DNA of 64,000 nucleotides from assembly GCA_965205975.1 (NCBI GenBank), contig OZ242195.1, positions 1,472,001-1,536,000 of the forward strand. Reading direction: 5' to 3'. This document shows, in pieces, positions 1 to 11,509 of the stretch. Source of the stretch: Candidatus Latescibacterota bacterium. Its GTDB lineage: Bacteria; Latescibacterota; UBA2968. Below the pieces are notes generated by a model, which did no database searches, was not told the DNA's origin, and worked only from the letters and a program-made list of their open reading frames with translations. The translations under genes and the position numbers were made by a program. The number at the start of each line of letters is the position of its first letter. The stretch's first letter is position 1.

Positions 1-1
1 A

Positions 2-697
2 GAGCAGGAAACCCTGTTTAGCCGACAACTTTCAACGGAAATGGCCGTTGAAAGTGCGCGTAGAGCCTGGGCCGATGCAGAAGCCAATTATCAGGATGCC
101 CTCATCAAGATCGATAAAACTAAGCTATTAGCCCCCATTCAGGGCGTGCTGTCGGAACTTGCGGATATTACGCAGGGAACGCTGGTGACGCCAAATACCG
201 CAATCGCAAAAATTATGGATTATTCACAGGTATTTGTCGATCTGAAAATTCCCAATGCCCAGATTATTAATGTGAAATTGGGCCAGGGTATCCGCGTGAG
301 TAATTACGCTTTGCCCGAAGAAGTTTTTGAAGGTGAGATTGTCGAGATGGATCCGGCTATCGATCCGGTCACGCGTACAGTTCAGGTCGTCGGTATGGTA
401 GATAATCCCGACTTGCTTTTGCGGGCAGGCATGTTTGTCAAAACAGAAATAGTCACGGAATCGAGGCAAAATGTCGTACTTATTGCGCGCAATCTCGTTT
501 TGCGGCGGAGAAATCAGAAGGTCGTTTTTGTCGAAGAAGAAGGACGCGCACAACAACGCGAAGTCGAAACCGGACTGGAAGACCGCGATCGCGTGGAAAT
601 TGTGGTTGGACTTGAACCGGGAGACCAATTGATCACGAGCAATTACGAAACACTGAGGACGCGCACCCGGGTACGGGTCACGGGAGATAGCCGATGA
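2..697 (+). CDS. Efflux RND transporter periplasmic adaptor (membrane fusion protein), 5'-truncated by the window edge
   Basis: Frame open from position 2. MFP motifs LLAPIQGVL, DPAIDPVTRT, LLRAGMFV, VETGL..VEIVVGLEPGDQLI. Stop overlaps the ATG of the RND permease. Confidence 0.93.
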   Translation, partial: EQETLFSRQLSTEMAVESARRAWADAEANYQDALIKIDKTKLLAPIQGVLSELADITQGTLVTPNTAIAKIMDYSQVFVDLKIPNAQIINVKLGQGIRVSNYALPEEVFEGEIVEMDPAIDPVTRTVQVVGMVDNPDLLLRAGMFVKTEIVTESRQNVVLIARNLVLRRRNQKVVFVEEEGRAQQREVETGLEDRDRVEIVVGLEPGDQLITSNYETLRTRTRVRVTGDSR

Positions 698-3600
698 ATT
701 TGCCTGAATTTTCAACGCGATATCCCGTGACAATTGCCATGGCGACCCTTGCAGTGGTGTTGCTCGGCTGGATATCGCTGGACGGTTTGGGCACTGATCT
801 CTTGCCCGATTTGCAAACACCTGTCGTCACCATCGACCTGACGGCACCGGGCAAATCGCCTGTCGAGATCGAAGAAAGCTATACGCGCCGTCTCGAGCGC
901 GACGTGAGCACGATTAACGGCGTCAAGCGCGTATATTCGATTACCCGCTCTGGGCAAGCCGTGGTCATTGCGGAATTTGCCTGGGATGCGGACATGGATT
1001 ACGGGTTACTCGACGTGCAAAAAAGAGTGGGGCGCTATGCGGTCAATGAAGATGTGTCACAGTTGGATGTGACGCGAGAAGACCCGCTCGCGCTTGCGGT
1101 GATGCGAATAGCGATTACAGCAGACGAAAATACGGAACTCGACGCACTGATGGGCACGGTGGAATTACTGATCAAACCCAAATTAGAGGCCCTCGATGGC
1201 GTGGCGTCTGCCGAGGTGGAAGGGGGGGCGGAAAAGGAAGTGCGCGTTACACTCGATCCCTATTTGCTCGAAGCGTTTGGGCTTTCATCCGATGCGGTCA
1301 TCAATCGCATCGCACAGGCAAATGCCGATGTATCCGGAGGTACGCTCAGAGAAAACCAGCAATCGTATCTGGTCAAAGCCCTCGGTCGCTTAAATGACAT
1401 AAACGATGTGCGGGAAGTCATTGTGGGAGAAAGGCGCGGGGGTGGGGGTGTGGCTTCTGGAGACCGCGTGCCGGTGCGCGTGCGCAACGTGGGCACGGTT
1501 GACCTGGAATATCAAGAGCGAGAAACCATTGTGCGCCTCGATGGACGGGAATGCGTTGGCCTCGCCATTTACAAAGAAGCCGGTAGCAATACAGTCGCCG
1601 TGGTCAATACGGTATTGGATGCGATAGACGATATCGAAGCAGATCTGAGCGGCATGCACTTCACAACCGTCGAAAATCAGGCGCGATTTGTCGAAGACGC
1701 CATAGGCGAAGTCGAAACATCTGCCATCCACGGAGCATTTTTGGCGATTCTCGTGCTTTTGATCGCGTTGCGGAGTTGGACAGTGACGCTGGTGATAGGG
1801 TTGGCGATTCCCATTTCCGTATTGGCGACATTTACGCTTATGTATTTTGAGGGGCTGTCCCTGAATATTATGACGCTGGGCGGGTTGGCTCTGGGCGCAG
1901 GCATGCTCGTTGACAATGCCATTGTGGTCATTGAGAATATTTATCGGCATCTCGAAAGTGGCGAGGATGCGCGCACAGCATCGAGCCGCGGCGCATCTGA
2001 AGTCGGCGTGGCAATTCTGGCTTCAACGCTGACGACAGTGGCTGTTTTTTTGCCCATTGTCTATTTGCAGGGGCTGGCGGGCAAACTCTTTGTGGATCAG
2101 GCGTGGACTGTTGCATTTTCGCTGCTGTCATCGCTGGTTGTGGCAATGACGACGATTCCGATGCTGACGTCGCGCATTTTCCGGCGGCTGAATACCACGC
2201 GTCACACGACTATCCGGTCGGACAAATACTACCGGTTTCTCAATGGTATATTGAATCGCAAACCCATCCTGCTCGTCGTCGTACTGCTCATTCTGGGTGG
2301 AACCGGGTATATCGCCCGCGAGTTGCAGACGGAATTTATCCCGCGCGAAGATCAGGGGCTATTCCAAATTGATCTCACATTGTCCGAAGGTTCGCGTGTG
2401 GAACTGAGCGATCAGGTCGCTCTGCACGTCAAAGAGACTGTCGAAAGCGTTGGCGGAAGCGATGTAGCGCATGTGTACGCGCTGACCGGTCTCAACCCCG
2501 CTCAGATATCGAGTGGAGGCGATCCAACGGGACCCAATCGCGCGACCCTATCGGTGGCTTTGCACACACAGCGATCGCGCAGCGTCAGCGAGTTGGTGCG
2601 CGATCTGGATCCCATTTTGAGTGCCATGCCCGATATCGAAGTGAAATACAAGTTGCACGAAACCGCGCTCGAAGGCGTGATGGGCGGACAAGAAGCACCC
2701 ATTCAGGTCGAAGTGTCCGGGGAAAATCTCGATATTTTGGCACGCATCACAAAAGAGCTTCAGACGAGGATAGAGGGTCTTCCCTCGGTGTACAATGTGC
2801 GCACGAGTTTTCAGGGCGGACAGCCAGAAGTCGATCTGGCAATTCGCGATGAAGTGGCATCGGCTTTTGGGCTGACCACGCAAACCATCAGCCGCACACT
2901 GGAAAGACAACTGTCCGGTGAAGTTGCTGGCGAACTGTCTAAAGACCAGCGCACGCGGGATATCCGGGTAAAATATCGAGATATTGATCTGCGCGAACTC
3001 CACACCATGCAAATCGAAGGAGCAGATGGCGCGATCCTGACATTGGGGGATATTGCCGAGCTCAATATTATTGAAGGCCCCCGCGAAATTTTGAGAGAAG
3101 ATCAGCGTCGCGTGGGGCGCATTACGGGATATCTCACAGAAGGACGCATTCTAAGTGAAGCCGTTGCCGACGTACGCGCTACCATGCGGGAAGTGGTTGT
3201 GCCGTCGGGGTATCGCATTGAAATTGGCGGAGAAGAGCGTGAGCGAGCGGCATCATTTGAAAGTCTCAAATTTGCACTCCTGCTTTCGATTGTGCTGGTC
3301 TATATGGTGATGGCATCGCTGTTTGAATCCACGCTCCATCCGTTCACCGTCATGTTTTCCGTTCCACTGGCCGGCGTCGGCGTGATATTTGGATTCTATT
3401 TTTTGGGCGAACCGCTCAGTGTGATGGCCTATATCGGCATCATTATGCTGGGCGGTATTGCGGTCAACGATGCGATCATTCTCGTGGATCGCATCAACCA
3501 GCTCAGGCAAGCCGGCCTGACGTTGCGAGAAGCGATTCTACAGGGCGGTCAAGACCGCTTGCGCCCCATTATGATGACGAGTGCGACGACTATTCTCGCC

Positions 3601-3759
3601 CTGCTGCCCATGGCAATCGGCTTTGGCGAGGGGGCAAAATTGCGCGCGCCTATGGCTATTGCCGTCATTGCCGGCCTGGTGACATCGACATTGATGACCT
3701 TACTCGTGATACCCACCATGTATGAACTAATTGATCGCCTCCGGGGGAAATCCGCGTGA
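694..3759 (+). CDS. RND efflux permease (AcrB/AcrD/AcrF family), 1021 aa
   Basis: RND topology. TM4 GMLVDNAIVVIEN, TM10 GIAVNDAIILVD, RLRPIMMT motif. Confidence 0.95.
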   Translation: MNLPEFSTRYPVTIAMATLAVVLLGWISLDGLGTDLLPDLQTPVVTIDLTAPGKSPVEIEESYTRRLERDVSTINGVKRVYSITRSGQAVVIAEFAWDADMDYGLLDVQKRVGRYAVNEDVSQLDVTREDPLALAVMRIAITADENTELDALMGTVELLIKPKLEALDGVASAEVEGGAEKEVRVTLDPYLLEAFGLSSDAVINRIAQANADVSGGTLRENQQSYLVKALGRLNDINDVREVIVGERRGGGGVASGDRVPVRVRNVGTVDLEYQERETIVRLDGRECVGLAIYKEAGSNTVAVVNTVLDAIDDIEADLSGMHFTTVENQARFVEDAIGEVETSAIHGAFLAILVLLIALRSWTVTLVIGLAIPISVLATFTLMYFEGLSLNIMTLGGLALGAGMLVDNAIVVIENIYRHLESGEDARTASSRGASEVGVAILASTLTTVAVFLPIVYLQGLAGKLFVDQAWTVAFSLLSSLVVAMTTIPMLTSRIFRRLNTTRHTTIRSDKYYRFLNGILNRKPILLVVVLLILGGTGYIARELQTEFIPREDQGLFQIDLTLSEGSRVELSDQVALHVKETVESVGGSDVAHVYALTGLNPAQISSGGDPTGPNRATLSVALHTQRSRSVSELVRDLDPILSAMPDIEVKYKLHETALEGVMGGQEAPIQVEVSGENLDILARITKELQTRIEGLPSVYNVRTSFQGGQPEVDLAIRDEVASAFGLTTQTISRTLERQLSGEVAGELSKDQRTRDIRVKYRDIDLRELHTMQIEGADGAILTLGDIAELNIIEGPREILREDQRRVGRITGYLTEGRILSEAVADVRATMREVVVPSGYRIEIGGEERERAASFESLKFALLLSIVLVYMVMASLFESTLHPFTVMFSVPLAGVGVIFGFYFLGEPLSVMAYIGIIMLGGIAVNDAIILVDRINQLRQAGLTLREAILQGGQDRLRPIMMTSATTILALLPMAIGFGEGAKLRAPMAIAVIAGLVTSTLMTLLVIPTMYELIDRLRGKSA

Positions 3760-6700
3760 CACTTGCTGGTATTGCCGTTCTGCGGCCCGTGACTACGGCC
3801 ATGTTTTTTATAGGTCTGGCTATTTTAGGCGTGATTTCACTGGATCGGTTGCCCGTTCAGATATTTCCCGAACTCGTCCGCCCAGAAGTCTTTGTCGCAG
3901 TCACTCAACAGGGCTACTCGCCCGAACAGGTCGAACGGGATCTGGTAATGCCCGTCGAGAGAGAGGTGGGCAAGCTCGAAGGTATTGAAGCGTATGAGTC
4001 ATTTTCGCGCCAGAACAGTGGCGGGGTACGCATTTCCTACGCGCCCAATACGGATATGAAATTCGCGCTGCTGCAACTCGAGAGCCGCATCACGCGCCTG
4101 CAATCGCTTTTGCCGGAAAGAACGCGGGTCAATGTACAGCGCTTTGATGCCTCTGATCTGAGTGCCTCGATTATGCAAATCCACGTGTTGGGCGAAGGCG
4201 ATATAAACTGGTTGCGCGAATTTGCCGAGGAGAAAATCAGGCCGGAATTGGAAGCGGTCGATGGCGTTGTAAACGCGCAGGTCCTGGGCGGGCAAAGGAC
4301 GGCCATTGAAATTATTGTCGATCCATTGATGCTGCAAGCGCACCAGCTTTCGATGTCTGATGTTCGCAATCGCATCAATGCTTTTAATACGCGGCGGCAA
4401 TATCTCGGCAAAGTATATGATGGGGACCAGGCTTATGCGGTTAGCATTCAGGGCCAATTTACGGACCTCGTGCAAATCCGCAGAGTCGTTATCAAACCGG
4501 AATTGCCCCTGCACCTGGGCGACATTGCCAAAATTCGCTATGGCCTTCAGGAGCGTACAGACCTGCAACGCATCAATGGCAAAGCCGCCGTTGGCATTCG
4601 CATTCAAAAAGACGATGAAGCCAATCTGATCGAACTTGCGGGAGAACTTGAACACACCATCGAGCGAATAAATGGCGATCTCGCATACGAAAATATCCAG
4701 CTCGTGATCAGCCAGAATCAGGCAGAGATTATGAACGAAGCCCTCAATTTCCTCAAACGGGCCGCTGTTGTTGGGGGATTGCTCGGGCTTTTTGTTTTGT
4801 TCTTGTTTTTGAGAAATCTGCGCTTTGTCGCTGTTTTGCTCCTCGCCATTCCGTGTTCTTTGCTGCTCACATTTAATCTGATGTATATGTGGGATCTCAG
4901 TTTGAACGTGCTCTCGATGTGCGGCCTCGCGCTTGCAGTTGGTATGTTGATGGACAACGGCATCGTGGTCATGGAAAATATCTTCAAGCATTTTGAACAG
5001 GGCAAATCTCCCAAAGAAGCCGCAAAAGCAGGAACTGATGAGGTCGCACGCGCCGTTGTTGCGGCAACCGCGACAACCATTACAGTCTTTTTGCCTGTTG
5101 TTTTTATCCAAAGCGACTTTCAGGATGTCCTGCGAGAATTCGCACTGTCCATCGCCTTTCCTCTGCTTGCCTCTCTTCTCGTAGCCCTCACACTCGTGCC
5201 TGCTCTGGCATCCAAAACCCTTTCTCTCGCATCTCGACCACCGACGGGAACAGGCTTGTTGATCGAGATGTACACGGTGTGCCTCAAAGCGGGCTTGCGC
5301 CACAGAATCAGCGTATCGCTGGGTATTATCGGCGCGCTTGTCATCACGCTAATCATTTCTTTTTTCTTTATGCTACAACAGGATATCCGTCGCGAAGAAA
5401 ATCGTTTTACAGTATATATCAGCATGCCCGAAGGCACGACTATCGAAGCCCTCGATGCTGTTGTTGGCGAAATTGAAAGTGCTGTGCGAGATCTCAAAGG
5501 TGTGGATCGCTTTACGACCAGTATCAGCGAAACCCAGGCGAGTATCAATGTGGAGCTTTTGTCCTTATCCGAACGCCCCGACCAGATTTCTGTCGATCTC
5601 ATCAAAGAGAATCTCGAAGAGTCGTTCGGTGATGTCCAAAATGCGATTGTGAGTTATGAGGCCATCGCACGCACAGGCAGGGGAGGTGGTGGGGGCCGAG
5701 GGGGAGGCGGGGGAGGCGGTATTCGGGGCACCCGTCAGGCTACTGGCGGATTCAATCTGGAAGGGGGCGCACCTTCGGAAATGGCTGTTATTCGCGGCTA
5801 TGATTTTACGGTGCTTCAAATGCTTGCCGACGATCTGGTCTATCGCCTCGAAGAATTGGAGGAAATCGATCCCAATAGCGTAAGAGCCGATGCAGAACGA
5901 GGCGCATCTGAAGTGCATGTTTTGCCCGATGAAGAAGTAATGTTTGATCGGCGATTGCAGGTGCGCCAGGTGCTCAATGCCGTATCCGACGCCAATCCGC
6001 GCGGTGCGCGATCCAATATTTCATTTCTCACACCCGAAGGCACTGAAATCCCGATTGATGTCCGCAATGTCGAAGACCCCGAAGAAGAGGGAGAAGGGAT
6101 TGCGGGTTTGAGACAAACGCCGATACTGGGTTCAGGGGGGACGTACATTCCCCTTGTAGAGGTCTCGCATGTGCGCCGGGATCAGGGCAGGAGCATGATT
6201 TTGCGCACCAATCAATCGCGGCGCGTAATTGTATCCTATAATTTCGCCGAAGAAATTTTGCAATCTCAGCCTCTGCTGGAAGCCTCGCGCGCTTATGTGC
6301 AAGATGTGGTTTCCGAAATGGTGCTGCCCGAAGGGTATAGCATCGAAATGATCGAGGCAGAGGAAGAGACGATTTATTACTGGATGATGGGCATTGCCGC
6401 GTTGTTGATTTTTATGATTTTGGCCTCTTTGTTTGAATCGCTTTCTGCGCCTTTGATTATTCTGTGTACGTTGCCCGCAGCAATTATTGGATCGTGCTTG
6501 GCACTGATCTTATCAGGTACGGGATTGACCTCGCAAGAAGCGCCAATGGCACTGTTGGGGCTTATTGTTTTGAGCGGCATTGCCGTCAACAATGGGATCG
6601 TGCTAATCGATGCGATTGAAACCCTTCGCCGCCGCGGGTTCAGGCGAGAACGCGCGGTACTCACGGCGAGCCGGTCGCGCGTGCGTCCTGTTTTAATGAC

Positions 6701-8480
6701 TTCAGCAACCACCATTTTGGGCATGTTGCCTCTGGCACTCATATTTGGCGGCGATTACGAAATTTGGCCGCCCTTTGCGATTGTGGTAATCGGAGGGCTG
6801 GCGGTTTCAACGGTTTCCACCCTCGTGTTTATTCCCGTGGTGTACATGGGAATTGATCAGACTAAAGCCTGGCTGACGGATATTGGGTGGTTCGGGATCG
6901 TATTGGGAACAACGGCAGCTGCGGGATTGACGTATTGGGTTGACGATTATTACCAGAGTTTGTTCTGGACCTGTCTTTTGGCATTGCCAGCGTGGATGTT
7001 GTGTATGGGTGTGATCTGGGTTGTGCAACGCATTTATCGCGCGCGTATGGCTTCTCTTGCTGAGATCGGCAATATTGAACATCTCGAAATTCGCAATCTG
7101 ACCAAAATTTACGGCGCGCCGGGACGATTTAAGCACGAATGGGATCGCTTTAAGCGGCGTCATCAGCGCCTTTTAGAGCGCGGGCAGGTATTGGTAGATA
7201 AAAAGGCGATTAAGGACAGTTTGTGGTGGAAGTTACCACTTTTGGCACTTATGACCTATTTGGAAACCTATTTTGAACAGGGAACCTGGATCTTTTTGAC
7301 CGCGCTTGCTATGTGGGGCCTTGTACATCACCTCGTGCTATGTGCAGCTGCTTTGCGCGATTTTCGGATCGAGAATAGATGGATATCACAAATCGCCCGA
7401 TTGATTTTGCCGCTGGTCTTTGTGGCCTTTGTGCATTGGCGTTTGGAACTTATATCTTTGACTATAGCCACCAGTGCGATCTATTTGCTCTATCGCATTG
7501 TCGGATTTTTGGCAAATCGCGTTGCACAAGGACGCATTGATCCCGAGCATATACCGGGCAAATTAGGCCCTGTTAAAGGCATCGTGTACCGCGGAGCTGC
7601 CGCCATTCCCTTGATTGGGGTTCCCCGCCCACAATTCCAGGCTCTCGGAGGTGTAAGTCTCGATATTCCGCGCGGCATGTTTGGACTTCTGGGTCCCAAT
7701 GGCGCGGGCAAAACCACGCTGATGCGAATTGTGTGTCGGGTTCTGTCGTCAAATTACGGATCTGTGCTCGCCAATGGCAAAATACCGCTTACGCATCGGA
7801 ATATGCAGGGGGTGATTGGATATTTGCCGCAGCATTTTGGCCTTTATCTGCACATGTCTGCGTATAATTATCTGGAATACCGCGCGCTTTTGGAAGGATT
7901 TAAGGATGGGATGGCTCGGCGCAAGCGCGTTCAAGAATGCCTGGAACAGGTCAATCTGTGGGATAGGCGCGACGATCCGATTGGTTCGTTCTCTGGCGGC
8001 ATGAAACAGCGCGTGGGCATTGCACAAACCCTGTTGCACTTGCCGCAGATTATCGTAGTGGATGAACCGACAGCGGGATTGGACCCACTCGAGCGGATCC
8101 GGTTCAGAAATCTGCTGGCGCGATTTAGCCAGGAAAAAATCATTATTTTTTCCACACATATTGTCGAAGATATTGCGGGCAGTTGTAACCGATTGGCTGT
8201 GCTGAATCACGGTAAGGTGCTCTACACGGGAACCCCGATTGAAATGCGCGATTTGGCACGCGATAAGGTGTGGGAGGCTCTGCTGCCAGATCCGCGTTTT
8301 GAAGCGCTGGAACGCGACCTGGATATGATTACACATGTGCGCGTACCCGACGGGATTCGGGTGCGATTCCTCGCTACTGATCCCATCCCAGAAGCACATC
8401 CAGTTGCGCCCACCCTCGAAGATGCATACCTCTATCTTTTGCGACATGGCGATGAATACAAACAGGCTAACATGGCGTGA
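3756..8480 (+). CDS. RND efflux permease fused to a C-terminal ABC ATPase domain, 1574 aa
   Basis: About 1030 N-terminal aa are RND (GMLMDNGIVVMEN, GIAVNNGIVLID, RVRPVLMT). C-terminal Walker A GPNGAGKT (7692-7715), Q-loop YLPQ, signature FSGGMKQR, Walker B IIVVDEP, H-loop STH. One uninterrupted ORF. Confidence 0.92.
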   Translation: MTLAGIAVLRPVTTAMFFIGLAILGVISLDRLPVQIFPELVRPEVFVAVTQQGYSPEQVERDLVMPVEREVGKLEGIEAYESFSRQNSGGVRISYAPNTDMKFALLQLESRITRLQSLLPERTRVNVQRFDASDLSASIMQIHVLGEGDINWLREFAEEKIRPELEAVDGVVNAQVLGGQRTAIEIIVDPLMLQAHQLSMSDVRNRINAFNTRRQYLGKVYDGDQAYAVSIQGQFTDLVQIRRVVIKPELPLHLGDIAKIRYGLQERTDLQRINGKAAVGIRIQKDDEANLIELAGELEHTIERINGDLAYENIQLVISQNQAEIMNEALNFLKRAAVVGGLLGLFVLFLFLRNLRFVAVLLLAIPCSLLLTFNLMYMWDLSLNVLSMCGLALAVGMLMDNGIVVMENIFKHFEQGKSPKEAAKAGTDEVARAVVAATATTITVFLPVVFIQSDFQDVLREFALSIAFPLLASLLVALTLVPALASKTLSLASRPPTGTGLLIEMYTVCLKAGLRHRISVSLGIIGALVITLIISFFFMLQQDIRREENRFTVYISMPEGTTIEALDAVVGEIESAVRDLKGVDRFTTSISETQASINVELLSLSERPDQISVDLIKENLEESFGDVQNAIVSYEAIARTGRGGGGGRGGGGGGGIRGTRQATGGFNLEGGAPSEMAVIRGYDFTVLQMLADDLVYRLEELEEIDPNSVRADAERGASEVHVLPDEEVMFDRRLQVRQVLNAVSDANPRGARSNISFLTPEGTEIPIDVRNVEDPEEEGEGIAGLRQTPILGSGGTYIPLVEVSHVRRDQGRSMILRTNQSRRVIVSYNFAEEILQSQPLLEASRAYVQDVVSEMVLPEGYSIEMIEAEEETIYYWMMGIAALLIFMILASLFESLSAPLIILCTLPAAIIGSCLALILSGTGLTSQEAPMALLGLIVLSGIAVNNGIVLIDAIETLRRRGFRRERAVLTASRSRVRPVLMTSATTILGMLPLALIFGGDYEIWPPFAIVVIGGLAVSTVSTLVFIPVVYMGIDQTKAWLTDIGWFGIVLGTTAAAGLTYWVDDYYQSLFWTCLLALPAWMLCMGVIWVVQRIYRARMASLAEIGNIEHLEIRNLTKIYGAPGRFKHEWDRFKRRHQRLLERGQVLVDKKAIKDSLWWKLPLLALMTYLETYFEQGTWIFLTALAMWGLVHHLVLCAAALRDFRIENRWISQIARLILPLVFVAFVHWRLELISLTIATSAIYLLYRIVGFLANRVAQGRIDPEHIPGKLGPVKGIVYRGAAAIPLIGVPRPQFQALGGVSLDIPRGMFGLLGPNGAGKTTLMRIVCRVLSSNYGSVLANGKIPLTHRNMQGVIGYLPQHFGLYLHMSAYNYLEYRALLEGFKDGMARRKRVQECLEQVNLWDRRDDPIGSFSGGMKQRVGIAQTLLHLPQIIVVDEPTAGLDPLERIRFRNLLARFSQEKIIIFSTHIVEDIAGSCNRLAVLNHGKVLYTGTPIEMRDLARDKVWEALLPDPRFEALERDLDMITHVRVPDGIRVRFLATDPIPEAHPVAPTLEDAYLYLLRHGDEYKQANMA

Positions 8481-9180
8481 GTTGCTTTTCTTTGTCGGAA
8501 AAATGCACAGCCTGAGCATGAAAATCGTGTTTCACCGCAAAATGATTTTTATGTTTGGCGGGATTGTGGCATATTACGCAATTTTGTACGCGATTGCAAT
8601 CTGGCGTCCAGGTGAAGGACTTTCAGTTGAACAAGCCCTCCATGTATTGGTTGAAGTACCGGGCACAGTGCTTGCAGTCTATCTGACGATGGATCTGGTG
8701 TCGGGGGAGAGAGATAAGGATACGCTCGAAATTCTGTTTAGCACGGCGATCAGTCACTACGCGACGTGGGCCGTGAGAATTGTGTCGATCAGCGCTGCGC
8801 TATTTGTCACGCTGATGGCAATGAGCACGATTTCCTACTATTTTTTTGCGGAATTCCCCTACCTTCTGGGGGGATTGAATGCATGTATCCCTGCCTTTTT
8901 TATGGTGGGAGCCACATTTTTGTTTTCTGTCTTGTGTCGCAGTGGCAATGCGGCAGGTATGCTCGCCGTTGGGCTTTTGATTGCGATTTTGCTTTCGACG
9001 GAGGTGTTTGAGGATACATCGTATTACCTTTTTCTCAAGCCATTTGACCCGCCTTCAGATTTAGATACCAGCCTGTGGGTAAATCGCGTGGTCTTAAACC
9101 GCGCGGGTATTGCCATTCTCGGTATATTGTTCATTTTTCTGGCTCTGAGGCGAATGATAGAACGCGAAAAGCTATTGTGA
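8446..9180 (+). CDS. ABC-2-type membrane permease
   Basis: About 6 hydrophobic segments and the ABC-2 motif SGERDKDTLEILFST. Overlaps the 3' end of the ATPase-fused gene. Start at ATG 8446 or 8452. Confidence 0.8.
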   Translation: MAMNTNRLTWRELLFFVGKMHSLSMKIVFHRKMIFMFGGIVAYYAILYAIAIWRPGEGLSVEQALHVLVEVPGTVLAVYLTMDLVSGERDKDTLEILFSTAISHYATWAVRIVSISAALFVTLMAMSTISYYFFAEFPYLLGGLNACIPAFFMVGATFLFSVLCRSGNAAGMLAVGLLIAILLSTEVFEDTSYYLFLKPFDPPSDLDTSLWVNRVVLNRAGIAILGILFIFLALRRMIEREKLL

Positions 9181-9355: not shown

Positions 9356-10018
9356 ATGCAGCCACCGCAACCGCAACAAGAAGATATACTGGTCTGGTTC
9401 CTCAAGGTTTGGGGTCAGATTGAAGCAAATTATATCAGAATCCTCACGGGATTTGGTATTGCCATTGTCGCTGCGTTGATAGTCCTGTTTTTTTATCGCA
9501 CACAAACACAACACGCAGAGGCGGCTCGCACAGCTCTCGGAGACGTTTATATCGCACTTTATGAAGGGCGCGTAGAAGATGCGCTTGCTGCATCGCAGGA
9601 AGTAATAGAAACCTACGCAGGCAAAGCCGAAGCGGGCGAAGCATTGATGGCACTGGCCAATTTGCACTATGAAGAAGGACGCATCGCAGAGGCCCAGACA
9701 TATTTTCAACAATACCTGGATGAATATCCAACAGATGGGCCATTGGGTTATGGTGCATGGTCGGGGTTGGCGTCCTGTTTTGAAAATGAAGAAAAATTTG
9801 CCGAAGCTGGTCAGCAGTTCGCATCCTTCGCAGAAGCACATCCCGGATCGCCATTTGCGCCGATAGCCCTGAAGGAAGCCGGCAGATGTTACGAACTCGG
9901 CAAAATGCCTCAGCAGGCGAGTGATGCGTATCAAAAGATCGTCAAAGAATACCATGAGTCGTCCGTCACAAGATTTGCACGCGGTCAATTGAACATGATG
10001 GGTATCGAGATAGATTAG
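9356..10018 (+). CDS. Membrane-anchored tetratricopeptide repeat protein (YfgM/CpoB-like)
   Basis: One N-terminal TM helix followed by TPR helices (ALMALANLHYEEG, YQKIVKEYHES). SD GGAGGA upstream. Confidence 0.8.
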   Translation: MQPPQPQQEDILVWFLKVWGQIEANYIRILTGFGIAIVAALIVLFFYRTQTQHAEAARTALGDVYIALYEGRVEDALAASQEVIETYAGKAEAGEALMALANLHYEEGRIAEAQTYFQQYLDEYPTDGPLGYGAWSGLASCFENEEKFAEAGQQFASFAEAHPGSPFAPIALKEAGRCYELGKMPQQASDAYQKIVKEYHESSVTRFARGQLNMMGIEID

Positions 10019-10610: not shown

Positions 10611-11219
10611 CTACGTCATTTCTTTTGTGTCCGCGCGTCCAAGTCCAAGAGCCCGTTGATATAACAGATCTGACAGCCGCTGATTCTCTTCTCGGAGTTT
10701 CTGAATCGTTTCAGCACTTTTCTGTGCGGTTATTTCTACTTCTTCTTGTTGTCTGTGCAGCCAATTTGCGTTTTGTTCTGCTTGTTTTTCCCTTTCTTTT
10801 GCCATATTCAGCTCTTCTCGCGTTTTTTCGAGTTCTTCTTTTAGAGCACGTGCTTCCGTCCATCCAGACGCTGATGACGCCTCTAATTGCGCATTGCGTT
10901 CGTTTATACTGCGAATTTCCGCTCTCAGTTCCCTTTCAACTGTTTCGATCGCTGCCAATTTTCCCAATTGCTGTTGCTGGGCTTCAAATTCAGATTTTTC
11001 GACGAAAATTTGATCGGGATTATGGCTCATATCAATATGATTTTCCCTCATTTTTTTTCCAAATTTTTTCCTAAATAATTCCTCAATTTCATCTCTGGAT
11101 ATTTGCCAGGTCCCATTCCATTTTTCAGGCTTTAAAAAACCTCTATTAATATAATTTCTTATTGTTTTATCAGTCACTTTGAGAATTTTTGCAGCCTCGA
11201 CAATCCCGTAACTTTCCAT
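10611..11219 (-). CDS. MerR/excisionase-like HTH DNA-binding protein with long C-terminal coiled coil
   Basis: N-terminal YGIVEAAKILKVTDKTIRNYINRGFL..WQISRDEI, then about 110 aa rich in E/Q/K/R/L. SD AGGAGG. Confidence 0.8.
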   Translation of the reverse strand: MESYGIVEAAKILKVTDKTIRNYINRGFLKPEKWNGTWQISRDEIEELFRKKFGKKMRENHIDMSHNPDQIFVEKSEFEAQQQQLGKLAAIETVERELRAEIRSINERNAQLEASSASGWTEARALKEELEKTREELNMAKEREKQAEQNANWLHRQQEEVEITAQKSAETIQKLREENQRLSDLLYQRALGLGRADTKEMT

Positions 11220-11509
11220 CGTTTTCCTCCTTTATATATTCCAGTTTATTTGGAATTATTTTCTATTAAATTAGTATTATTTTTCCAAACTGTCAAGGAG
11301 CAAAATAACAAAAAAATAGGCATAAATAATGAATTTTTGTTATTTTTTAAAAAAAGATGTACTTTACACGAATTTTCAAAAAATAAATGCCCCAAAAAAC
11401 AAAATAGAAACGAAACTGACTCTGAAAAAACAAGGGGGAAGTTAATTTTACAAAAAAACAAGGACCAGAGAGAAAAAACTAAAATTTGAAACAAAAAGAG
11501 AGGTAAAAA

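Follow-up and report, generated by a model that had tools for sequence, protein, structure and literature searches.

A predicted membrane-spanning insertion between the first two strands of an ABC ATPase domain fused to an RND permease in a Latescibacterota bacterium

An RND-ABC fusion gene with a divided ATPase domain

The window analyzed here, i.e., the whole stretch of 64,000 nucleotides from Candidatus Latescibacterota bacterium (assembly GCA_965205975.1, contig OZ242195.1, positions 1,472,001 to 1,536,000 of the forward strand), contains near its start a gene whose product joins a permease of the resistance-nodulation-division (RND) type to the nucleotide-binding domain (NBD) of an ATP-binding cassette (ABC) transporter. 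In this fusion protein the first β-strand of the NBD, which ends in the A-loop tyrosine, is separated from the second strand by a long segment predicted to cross the membrane four times, with two further predicted crossings ahead of the first strand. The gene, its constituent parts and the genes which accompany it in the operon are collected in Table 1.

Table 1. Features of the fusion gene and its operon (window coordinates, unless a genome coordinate is given; residue numbers refer to the fusion protein)
Feature	Position	Strand	Basis or remark
Free NBD (297 aa) and 1160-aa ABC-2 permease with M1-peptidase-like domain	G000:C1:1467149-1471537		just upstream of window
Periplasmic adaptor (membrane fusion protein, MFP) gene, 3' part	2..697	+	
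Second RND permease, unfused (RND1), 1021 aa	694..3759	+	
RND-ABC fusion gene, whole open reading frame (ORF), 1574 aa	3756..8480	+	
RND permease part, residues 1-1034; relay positions D400, N401, N945, R975, T982	3756..6857	+	Pfam ACR_tran, NF033617, MdtB best PDB match
Extra membrane hairpin ahead of strand 1: transmembrane helices TM13 1045-1066, TM14 1069-1092	6888..7031	+	family hydropathy, model
NBD strand β1 (1109-1119), ending in A-loop Tyr1119 (7110-7112)	7080..7112	+	profile scan, conservation, models
175-aa insertion in β1-β2 loop	7116..7640	+	
Basic amphipathic helix directly after A-loop, 1124-1141, at position of Wzt gate helix	7125..7178	+	models
First inserted membrane hairpin: TM15 1157-1172, TM16 1176-1200	7224..7355	+	similar to TM13-14
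Second inserted membrane hairpin: TM17 1208-1230, TM18 1233-1257	7377..7526	+	
Remaining NBD, β2 through C-terminal domain	7635..8477	+	
β2	7635-7670	+	
Walker A	7692-7715	+	
Signature FSGGM	7989-8003	+	
Walker B with catalytic Glu	8049-8066	+	
H-switch	8157-8159	+	
Small ABC-2 (type V-like) permease; start 8446 or 8452 inferred	8446..9180	+	overlaps end of fusion gene; weak Pfam ABC2_membrane_3

The initial annotation had reported that the usual opening of an NBD, LEIRNLTKIYG, is parted from its continuation ALGGVSLDI..GLLGPNGAGKT by 175 codons. These coordinates prove exact: the opening corresponds to residues 1110-1120 (nucleotides 7083-7115), ALGGVSLDI begins at residue 1296 (nucleotide 7641), GLLGPNGAGKT ends at nucleotide 7715, and the gap is exactly 175 codons in one uninterrupted frame. 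What that annotation omitted is that the first 1034 residues constitute a complete RND permease. This region matches the Pfam ACR_tran model over the full RND architecture (E 1e-179; 600 bits against a cut-off of 28) and is closest to MdtB among PDB sequences, while NF033617 aligns over residues 6-1034 with a score under the family cut-off. The Pfam ABC_tran match spans residues 1299-1440 (91 bits, cut-off 25), and the NBD carries Walker A, the Q-loop, the signature, Walker B with the catalytic glutamate, the D-loop and the H-switch. A glycine-rich stretch, GRGGGGGRGGGGGGG, falls within the porter region of the RND part (window ~5670-5730) and belongs to the family consensus; comparable Gly/Arg stretches are found in RND1 and in the large permease.

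The assignment of LEIRNLTKIYG as strand 1 was assessed with a position profile built from 38 free NBDs, those with a parsable strand out of 49 in related loci. This segment scores 28.3 bits, as against 1.5 bits for the runner-up 11-mer ahead of Walker A. The distance from the A-loop aromatic residue to Walker A is 22-24 residues in 37 of the 38 free NBDs and 194 in the fusion. A search with residues 1030-1574 retrieved 4413 matches, many of them to the NBD only; the best 120 of these 4413 are all proteins combining RND and ABC parts, in which the layout is kept throughout. The source names among these 120 include Latescibacterota, KSB1, Gemmatimonadota, Acidobacteriota, Calditrichota and Bacteroidota, and the family includes homolog P0111 from a cultured non-pathogenic species, Mangrovibacterium marinum. 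Thus, in the sequences compared, homologs do share the point of insertion. Across the resulting 121 sequences there is no variation at L1115 or K1117, residue 1119 is tyrosine in 119 and phenylalanine in two, and 120-121 retain the catalytic motifs (Walker A, Q-loop, signature, Walker B Glu, H-switch). In a wider set, K1117 and an aromatic residue (Y/F) at 1119 are each present in 233 of 233 sequences; together with the profile score, this bears out the proposal that the tyrosine is the A-loop residue.

An artefact of assembly or a frameshift is ruled out as the source of the split by the retention of the layout in the best homologs and by a 13-kb contig from a separate study, which spans window positions 1-9053 with 36 differences and no gaps. 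A contig from an RNA library of a relative spans 6408-7891 without a skip, although these contigs reveal neither transcription nor strand.

The inserted helices and the fate of strand 1

Hydropathy averaged over 253 sequences displays two peaks before strand 1 (~1046-1061 and 1070-1089) and four inside the insert (~1157-1170, 1177-1194, 1215-1227 and 1233-1248), and two AlphaFold2 models each contain four long helices in the insert, in keeping with the original count of about four hydrophobic helices there and two before it. The amphipathic helix which directly follows the A-loop has a family-mean hydrophobic moment of 0.71. The content of lysine plus arginine in the successive loops alternates (1.65/0.49/15.4/0.19/2.95/1.22/11.1 in the 253 sequences). 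TM12 of RND permeases ends in the cytoplasm. Since the alternation fits the positive-inside rule and the helix count is even, strand 1 and the core of the NBD are both predicted to be cytoplasmic, rather than on opposite sides of the membrane as an odd count would have implied.

Within the insert, identity between distant members falls to 18-27%, while W1129 (224 of 233 sequences), W1158, W1178, G1268 and P1285 are strongly kept (220-225 of 233). Three members of the long-insert class (P0074, P0088 and P0104) bear additional low-complexity stretches, as much as ~85 residues long, in the cytoplasmic loop that links the first inserted hairpin to the second, which indicates that this loop is itself permissive. 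Searches with the insert gave no Pfam match at E values up to 10, no family among PDB sequences (best E 1.1), only clusters of 56-57-residue fragments at 0.92 in the ESM Atlas, nothing at E 0.001 with Foldseek and, in a wide structural search, a best Z of 8.8 over 57-85 residues to generic hairpins. These missing matches do not establish a new fold. Captured helices from an ABC-2 permease or an RND protein were considered as the origin of the insert and ruled out by profile probabilities of 0.1-0.5%.

The structural question, namely whether the displaced strand still joins the NBD, was addressed with the two models. Model A, of residues 1030-1574 (545 residues; alignment of 72 sequences; pLDDT 89, pTM 0.78), comprises in order two helices, a strand at 1109-1119, the amphipathic helix, four long helices and strand 2 at 1294-1305. 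Its alignments to solved NBDs open at model residue 79-80 (=1108-1109) and chain residue 1-2, i.e., at the strand: model residues 80-466 superpose on residues 1-230 of MJ0796 (1l2t_A; 218 of 230 aligned, root-mean-square deviation 2.3, Z 25.4) and 79-472 on residues 2-228 of LptB (4p31_B; 222 aligned, deviation 1.9, Z 26.8). The best structural match is 4yer_A (Z 28.8), and Wzt (7k2t_A) likewise aligns from strand 1 onward (Z 23.1). Sequential Foldseek alignments of the model to LptB cover 208-209 columns only, and the superpositions above are known by their first and last aligned residues rather than by the register of the strand. Model B was made from the fragment 1033-1304, which omits the NBD core (pLDDT 91.5, pTM 0.64), and its only strands are 1111-1119 and 1294-1303, both assigned as extended, so that they pair with each other. 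Further, in a covariation analysis of 233 sequences (50,086 pairs), I1112-L1302 ranks 9 and E1111-D1303 ranks 13, and the antiparallel register which they imply is the best of 604 options for strand 1. On independent branches, Glu1111 occurs with a residue other than Glu at 1303 in 6.6 against 0.1 of 15 pairs (median p 0.016), column 1303 being first of 180.

Several results weigh against this interpretation. Crude hydropathy counts on single sequences yield from one to five helices, mostly three or four, so that the figure of four depends on the family-averaged hydropathy and the two models. The I1112-L1302 pair has no support on independent branches, and a coarse co-change test, weak for all pairs, ranks both strand pairs no higher than the top 13-22%. 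The positive control for covariation failed twice: in 85-93 unsplit NBDs the same pairs rank 195 and 358 of 1176. Contacts between the hairpins proposed by covariation did not stand out in the co-change test; this, with the pTM of model B, means that a compact bundle of six helices is not established by the models or by covariation. Finally, AlphaFold2 knows the NBD fold and may favor the canonical sheet, and the structural evidence consists entirely of prediction.

The prediction status of the models and the failed control would leave room for the strand-like motif being a relic outside the NBD, which would instead use the residues just ahead of β2. This appears extremely improbable: in 129 of the 129 long-insert fusions defined below the strand-1 segment is the top profile match by at least 5 bits, with no alternative strand-1-like segment, K1117 and the aromatic residue are invariant, and both models pair the segment with β2. 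Taken together, these lines of evidence make it very probable that strand 1 pairs with strand 2 across the membrane insert to give a split-NBD architecture, in which strand β1 and the A-loop aromatic residue are predicted to pack into the ABCβ subdomain. The NBD would otherwise be normal and catalytically complete, its β1-β2 loop having grown into two membrane hairpins, as the computations support. Of the earlier proposal that a membrane bundle tethers the NBD, the insertion in the first β-hairpin is thus supported, the compact bundle is not, and a tether is not indispensable in kind, because the NBD is already joined to the last helix of the RND part and a sister clade manages without the six helices.

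Sister fusions and the origin of the hairpins

The region comprising the extra helices and the insert is matched in 79 of 151 sampled genomes of the phylum, and in 34 of the 52 of good quality. Its profile has 163 matches at E ≤0.001 among 1.84 billion representative sequences, and 51 of the 52 new matches longer than 280 residues carry an RND or a Walker A motif (among the 150 matches listed). The 80 matches of 299-954 residues, considered as free-standing NBDs that might carry the membrane insert, come mostly from short contigs or are marked partial; P0133 and P0168, in this size range but on long contigs, start inside the insert. Among the matches listed by a scan of GTDB genomes, most are free NBDs, so that no count is drawn from them.

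A census of 169 full-length fusions (>1300 aa), following a search with the fusion of locus L004 (below) and classified by the distance from the A-loop tyrosine to Walker A, resolves three classes: a long class of 129 (186-279 residues), a short class of 34 (60-76 residues) and a very short class of six (46 residues), with three short-class members reassigned by eye after the profile had misplaced the strand. The 40 fusions outside the long class have a soluble loop of 27-57 residues and lack all six extra helices, i.e., the hairpin ahead of strand 1 as well as the inserted ones, and no fusion with only some of the helices occurs among the 169. The short clade is exemplified by L004:6935-11248, a fusion of 1437 residues with a soluble loop of 46 residues and none of the extra helices; its other members are P0199-P0242, P0295, P0297, P0304 and P0306, at ~1410-1490 residues with loops of 27 or 42-57 residues. 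Where named, the sources of the short forms are Hinthialibacter or Omnitrophota. The loop inserts across the family accordingly measure 27, 42-57 or 167-260 residues, and no homology was detected between the short and the long inserts (profile probabilities of 1.6% and 0.1%).

In a tree of 40 NBD sequences, from which long branches including P0304 were excluded, the fused NBDs form a single clade (97/94), with the long-insert clade (100/99) being sister to the short ones (95/81). A tree of the RND parts (35 sequences, rooted on the other RND of the operon) recovers the same split, with supports of 99 and 99. The presence of a soluble loop without extra helices in the sister clade suggests that the membrane helices are probably a later addition, and a single gain in the long lineage is the simpler account, as free NBDs have a short loop. 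On the other side, the base is left open when the long branches are retained in the NBD tree, and gain and loss of the helices are not separable by the trees.

As to how the hairpins arose, the hairpin ahead of strand 1 resembles the first inserted one with a profile probability of 85-89% and a score of 23.8; as controls, 100 within-helix shuffles reach 17.4 at most and 47 hydrophobic windows 14.7. This likeness points to duplication. A three-fold repeat of the hairpin was rejected, since only hairpins 1 and 2 match (2-3, 6%; 1-3, 1.5%). Hence, the history may have begun with an RND-NBD fusion bearing a short loop, after which one lineage would have acquired the hairpins, at least one of the inserted ones through duplication of the hairpin ahead of β1.

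Alternatively, the hairpins might be a neutral elaboration, a tolerated duplication in a permissive loop which would stabilize or anchor the fold and do nothing specific with the partner proteins. The unrelated inserts of three size ranges within the same loop of one family and the low identity between distant inserts are in line with this, as is the precedent of CFTR, in which channels severed in this loop still work (PMC2217481). It is nonetheless quite unlikely in view of the six-helix pattern, the spacing of the helices and several Trp, Pro and Gly positions being kept across phyla, and of the want of any member with part of the helices among the 169.

Operon partners and the possible role of the helices

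The operon runs in the order free NBD, 1160-residue ABC-2 permease, adaptor, RND1, fusion and small ABC-2 permease. All six genes recur in that order in 21 of 30 loci from other genomes, the remainder being cut by the ends of contigs or of the fetched sequence, and the small permease directly follows the fusion in 27 of the 30, the other three stopping at contig ends. A TolC-family gene is found inside the operon in 15 of 30 related loci and just after it in three. It is absent from the operon in this genome, where the sole clear match to the TolC of the relatives lies at G000:C1:5480338-5481723, beside another adaptor-RND pair. The fused NBD is 44% identical to the free NBD of the operon.

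The Pfam ABC2 matches of the permeases are weak and below cut-off in this genome, that of the small permease being to ABC2_membrane_3 at E 3e-4, while the homologs from loci L004 and L006 score above it. The profile of the small permease resembles the ABC-2 domain of the upstream 1160-residue protein with a probability of 92% and had no match in a sequence search of the PDB. The 1160-residue protein itself (G000:C1:1468055-1471537; L001:8056-11538) combines an ABC-2 permease with an M1-aminopeptidase-like domain, a Golvesin_C domain and Gly/Arg-rich stretches. Its Peptidase_M1 match reaches just E 0.001, and the HEXXH zinc motif is absent from all the large permeases scanned; the M1-like domain probably has a periplasmic binding or scaffold role rather than acting as a peptidase. 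Directly after the operon the window encodes a membrane-anchored TPR protein with YfgM/CpoB-like matches (9356-10018, + strand). Farther on lies a gene for a 202-residue protein that has an HTH_17 (excisionase/MerR-like) domain at its N terminus and also a long coiled coil (10611-11219, - strand), adjoined by an AT-rich stretch (28% GC at 11001-11500).

Six helices are the usual complement of an ABC membrane domain, and those described here, found among the longer matches listed above only together with this NBD and an RND protein (51 of 52 carry an RND or a Walker A motif), could in principle be the NBD's own membrane domain, forming a self-contained half-transporter of new fold. This is very improbable, given that their profile resembles neither of the ABC-2 permeases (0.1% and 0.3%), that two putative ABC-2 permeases are always encoded alongside and that the short-insert fusions dispense with the helices.

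Comparison with known systems helps to place the insert. In Wzt, the connection between β1 and β2 forms a gate helix, which lies on the cytosolic membrane surface and packs at the permease interface, and which moves by ~8 Å on ATP binding, while the A-loop tyrosine stacks on adenine (PMC6379404). The type V ABC transporters, in the sense of PMC8386196, include the Wzt/TarH exporters of lipid-linked glycans, and the fusion is like these in that its insert sits between strands 1 and 2, right after the adenine-stacking tyrosine, and starts with a basic helix at the membrane surface (PMC6379404). It differs from them in that their gate helix is short and soluble and extends a free NBD, whereas here 175 residues with four membrane helices belong to an NBD fused to an RND permease; further, its partners are other ABC-2 permeases and RND genes, with neither a Wzm/TarG partner nor a glycan-synthesis context. 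Insertions in the same loop are known from CFTR NBD1 (regulatory insertion, 404-435; PMC2217481) and from ABCG2/G5/G8 (20-40 residues; PMC5065228), but these are soluble and mobile rather than membrane-spanning and belong to eukaryotic transporters with membrane domains of their own fused to the NBDs. By sequence family and by structure the NBD is closest to the DrrA/GldA/NosF-type ABC-2 ATPases (TM_1403, 4yer; TM0544, 1vpl), its best family matches being TIGR03522 and TIGR01188; however, it scores under the curated cut-offs of both, and those ATPases are free NBDs with a loop of 3-5 residues.

The RND side of the operon is reminiscent of MdtABC-TolC: it has a pair of RND genes and an adaptor, joined in most loci by a TolC-family gene. 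MdtABC contains an RND heterotrimer. Unlike the fusion operon, the Mdt system is without ABC components, and the fused RND departs from it at two relay residues (Asn for Asp and for Lys). A functional parallel is offered by MmpL7 and DrrABC: mycobacterial export of phthiocerol dimycocerosate requires the former, which is an RND protein, as well as the latter, a type V ABC exporter (PMC11539658). These are separate polypeptides with an RND of the MmpL type and neither adaptor nor TolC, and the abstract of that paper reports no such insert. Neither an RND-NBD fusion nor a membrane-spanning β1-β2 insert was found in the literature searched, which included part of PMC8277102 and had most subscription papers, TCDB and supplements outside its scope. 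Soluble inserts in the β1-β2 loop are therefore known, and what is new here is the predicted membrane-spanning variant, in an uncharacterized RND-ABC hybrid.

With these comparisons in mind, a rather likely role for the extra helices is that of an accessory clamp, which positions a type V-like ABC transporter made up of the fused NBD, the free NBD and the two permeases against the RND assembly. After TM12 of the RND part the chain would make two membrane crossings and lay down β1 and the A-loop in the cytoplasm; it would then run as an amphipathic helix along the membrane, cross four more times and return to form β2, the pairing of which with β1 would complete the ATP site. In type V transporters the β1-β2 loop, which in Wzt is the gate helix, is turned toward the membrane next to the permease interface. 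Helices inserted at this point can enter the bilayer without disturbing the sheet, and they could accordingly keep the NBD at the bilayer and set how far the RND lies from the ABC-2 permeases. The fused NBD would most likely pair with the free NBD beneath the two permeases, resulting in one ABC transporter per RND assembly, and a membrane-bound or envelope substrate might be passed from the ATP-driven ABC half to the channel formed by the RND, the adaptor and the outer-membrane protein. The six extra helices would remain accessory and outside the translocation path. We infer the partners, the stoichiometry and the substrate from gene context. In this regard, the neighbor of the fused NBD is the small permease in this operon and the large permease in the one short-insert genome checked, which has the same partner genes in a different order; as the neighbors differ between genomes, gene order does not tell which permease the fused NBD serves, a point that counts against so specific an arrangement.

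A more active part for the helices, as a lever, would have ATP binding move the β1-β2 loop and the helices relay this motion to the membrane domain of the RND, so that ATP drives or gates the RND instead of, or besides, protons. The shift of the corresponding loop in Wzt and the direct attachment of the insert to the adenine-stacking tyrosine speak for it, as do the conserved residues of the insert. Further, the canonical proton relay, Asp-Asp in TM4 and Lys in TM10 (D407/D408/K940 in AcrB), is altered in the fused RND: it has D400-N401 and N945 in place of the DD and K of MdtB, with N401 in 113 and N945 in 119 of 120 homologs. The genome encodes many unfused RNDs with this Asp-Asn/Asn-Asn pattern as well, and a degenerate relay was on this ground discarded as a mark of ATP drive. 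With unfused RNDs sharing it, neither proton-driven nor ATP-driven action is demonstrated for the fused RND. As 40 of the 169 fusions do without the helices and the operon provides both NBDs with putative ABC-2 permeases of the ordinary kind, the lever appears unlikely. The genome has 19 RND permease ORFs which match RND1; one RND ORF, C1:2943518-2947594, is a frame of 1359 codons.

The convention is to regard ABC ATPase domains as soluble units docking onto a membrane domain distinct from them. In the present case, helices that span the membrane are predicted to arise from the ATPase itself, beside the residue that stacks on the nucleotide, in a protein which also contains an RND pump subunit. 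If the lever were true, this would be a class of transporter in which two energy-coupling schemes, that of a type V ABC transporter and that of an RND-adaptor-TolC conduit, are physically wired together. Should the models hold, the loops of the family and of its free relatives, at 3-5, 27, 42-57 and 167-260 residues, form a natural set on which the coupling of ATP binding to the membrane by this loop could be tested, with the short-insert fusions as simpler targets for structural work, and would provide a route to asking whether RND and ABC transporters operate as a single machine.

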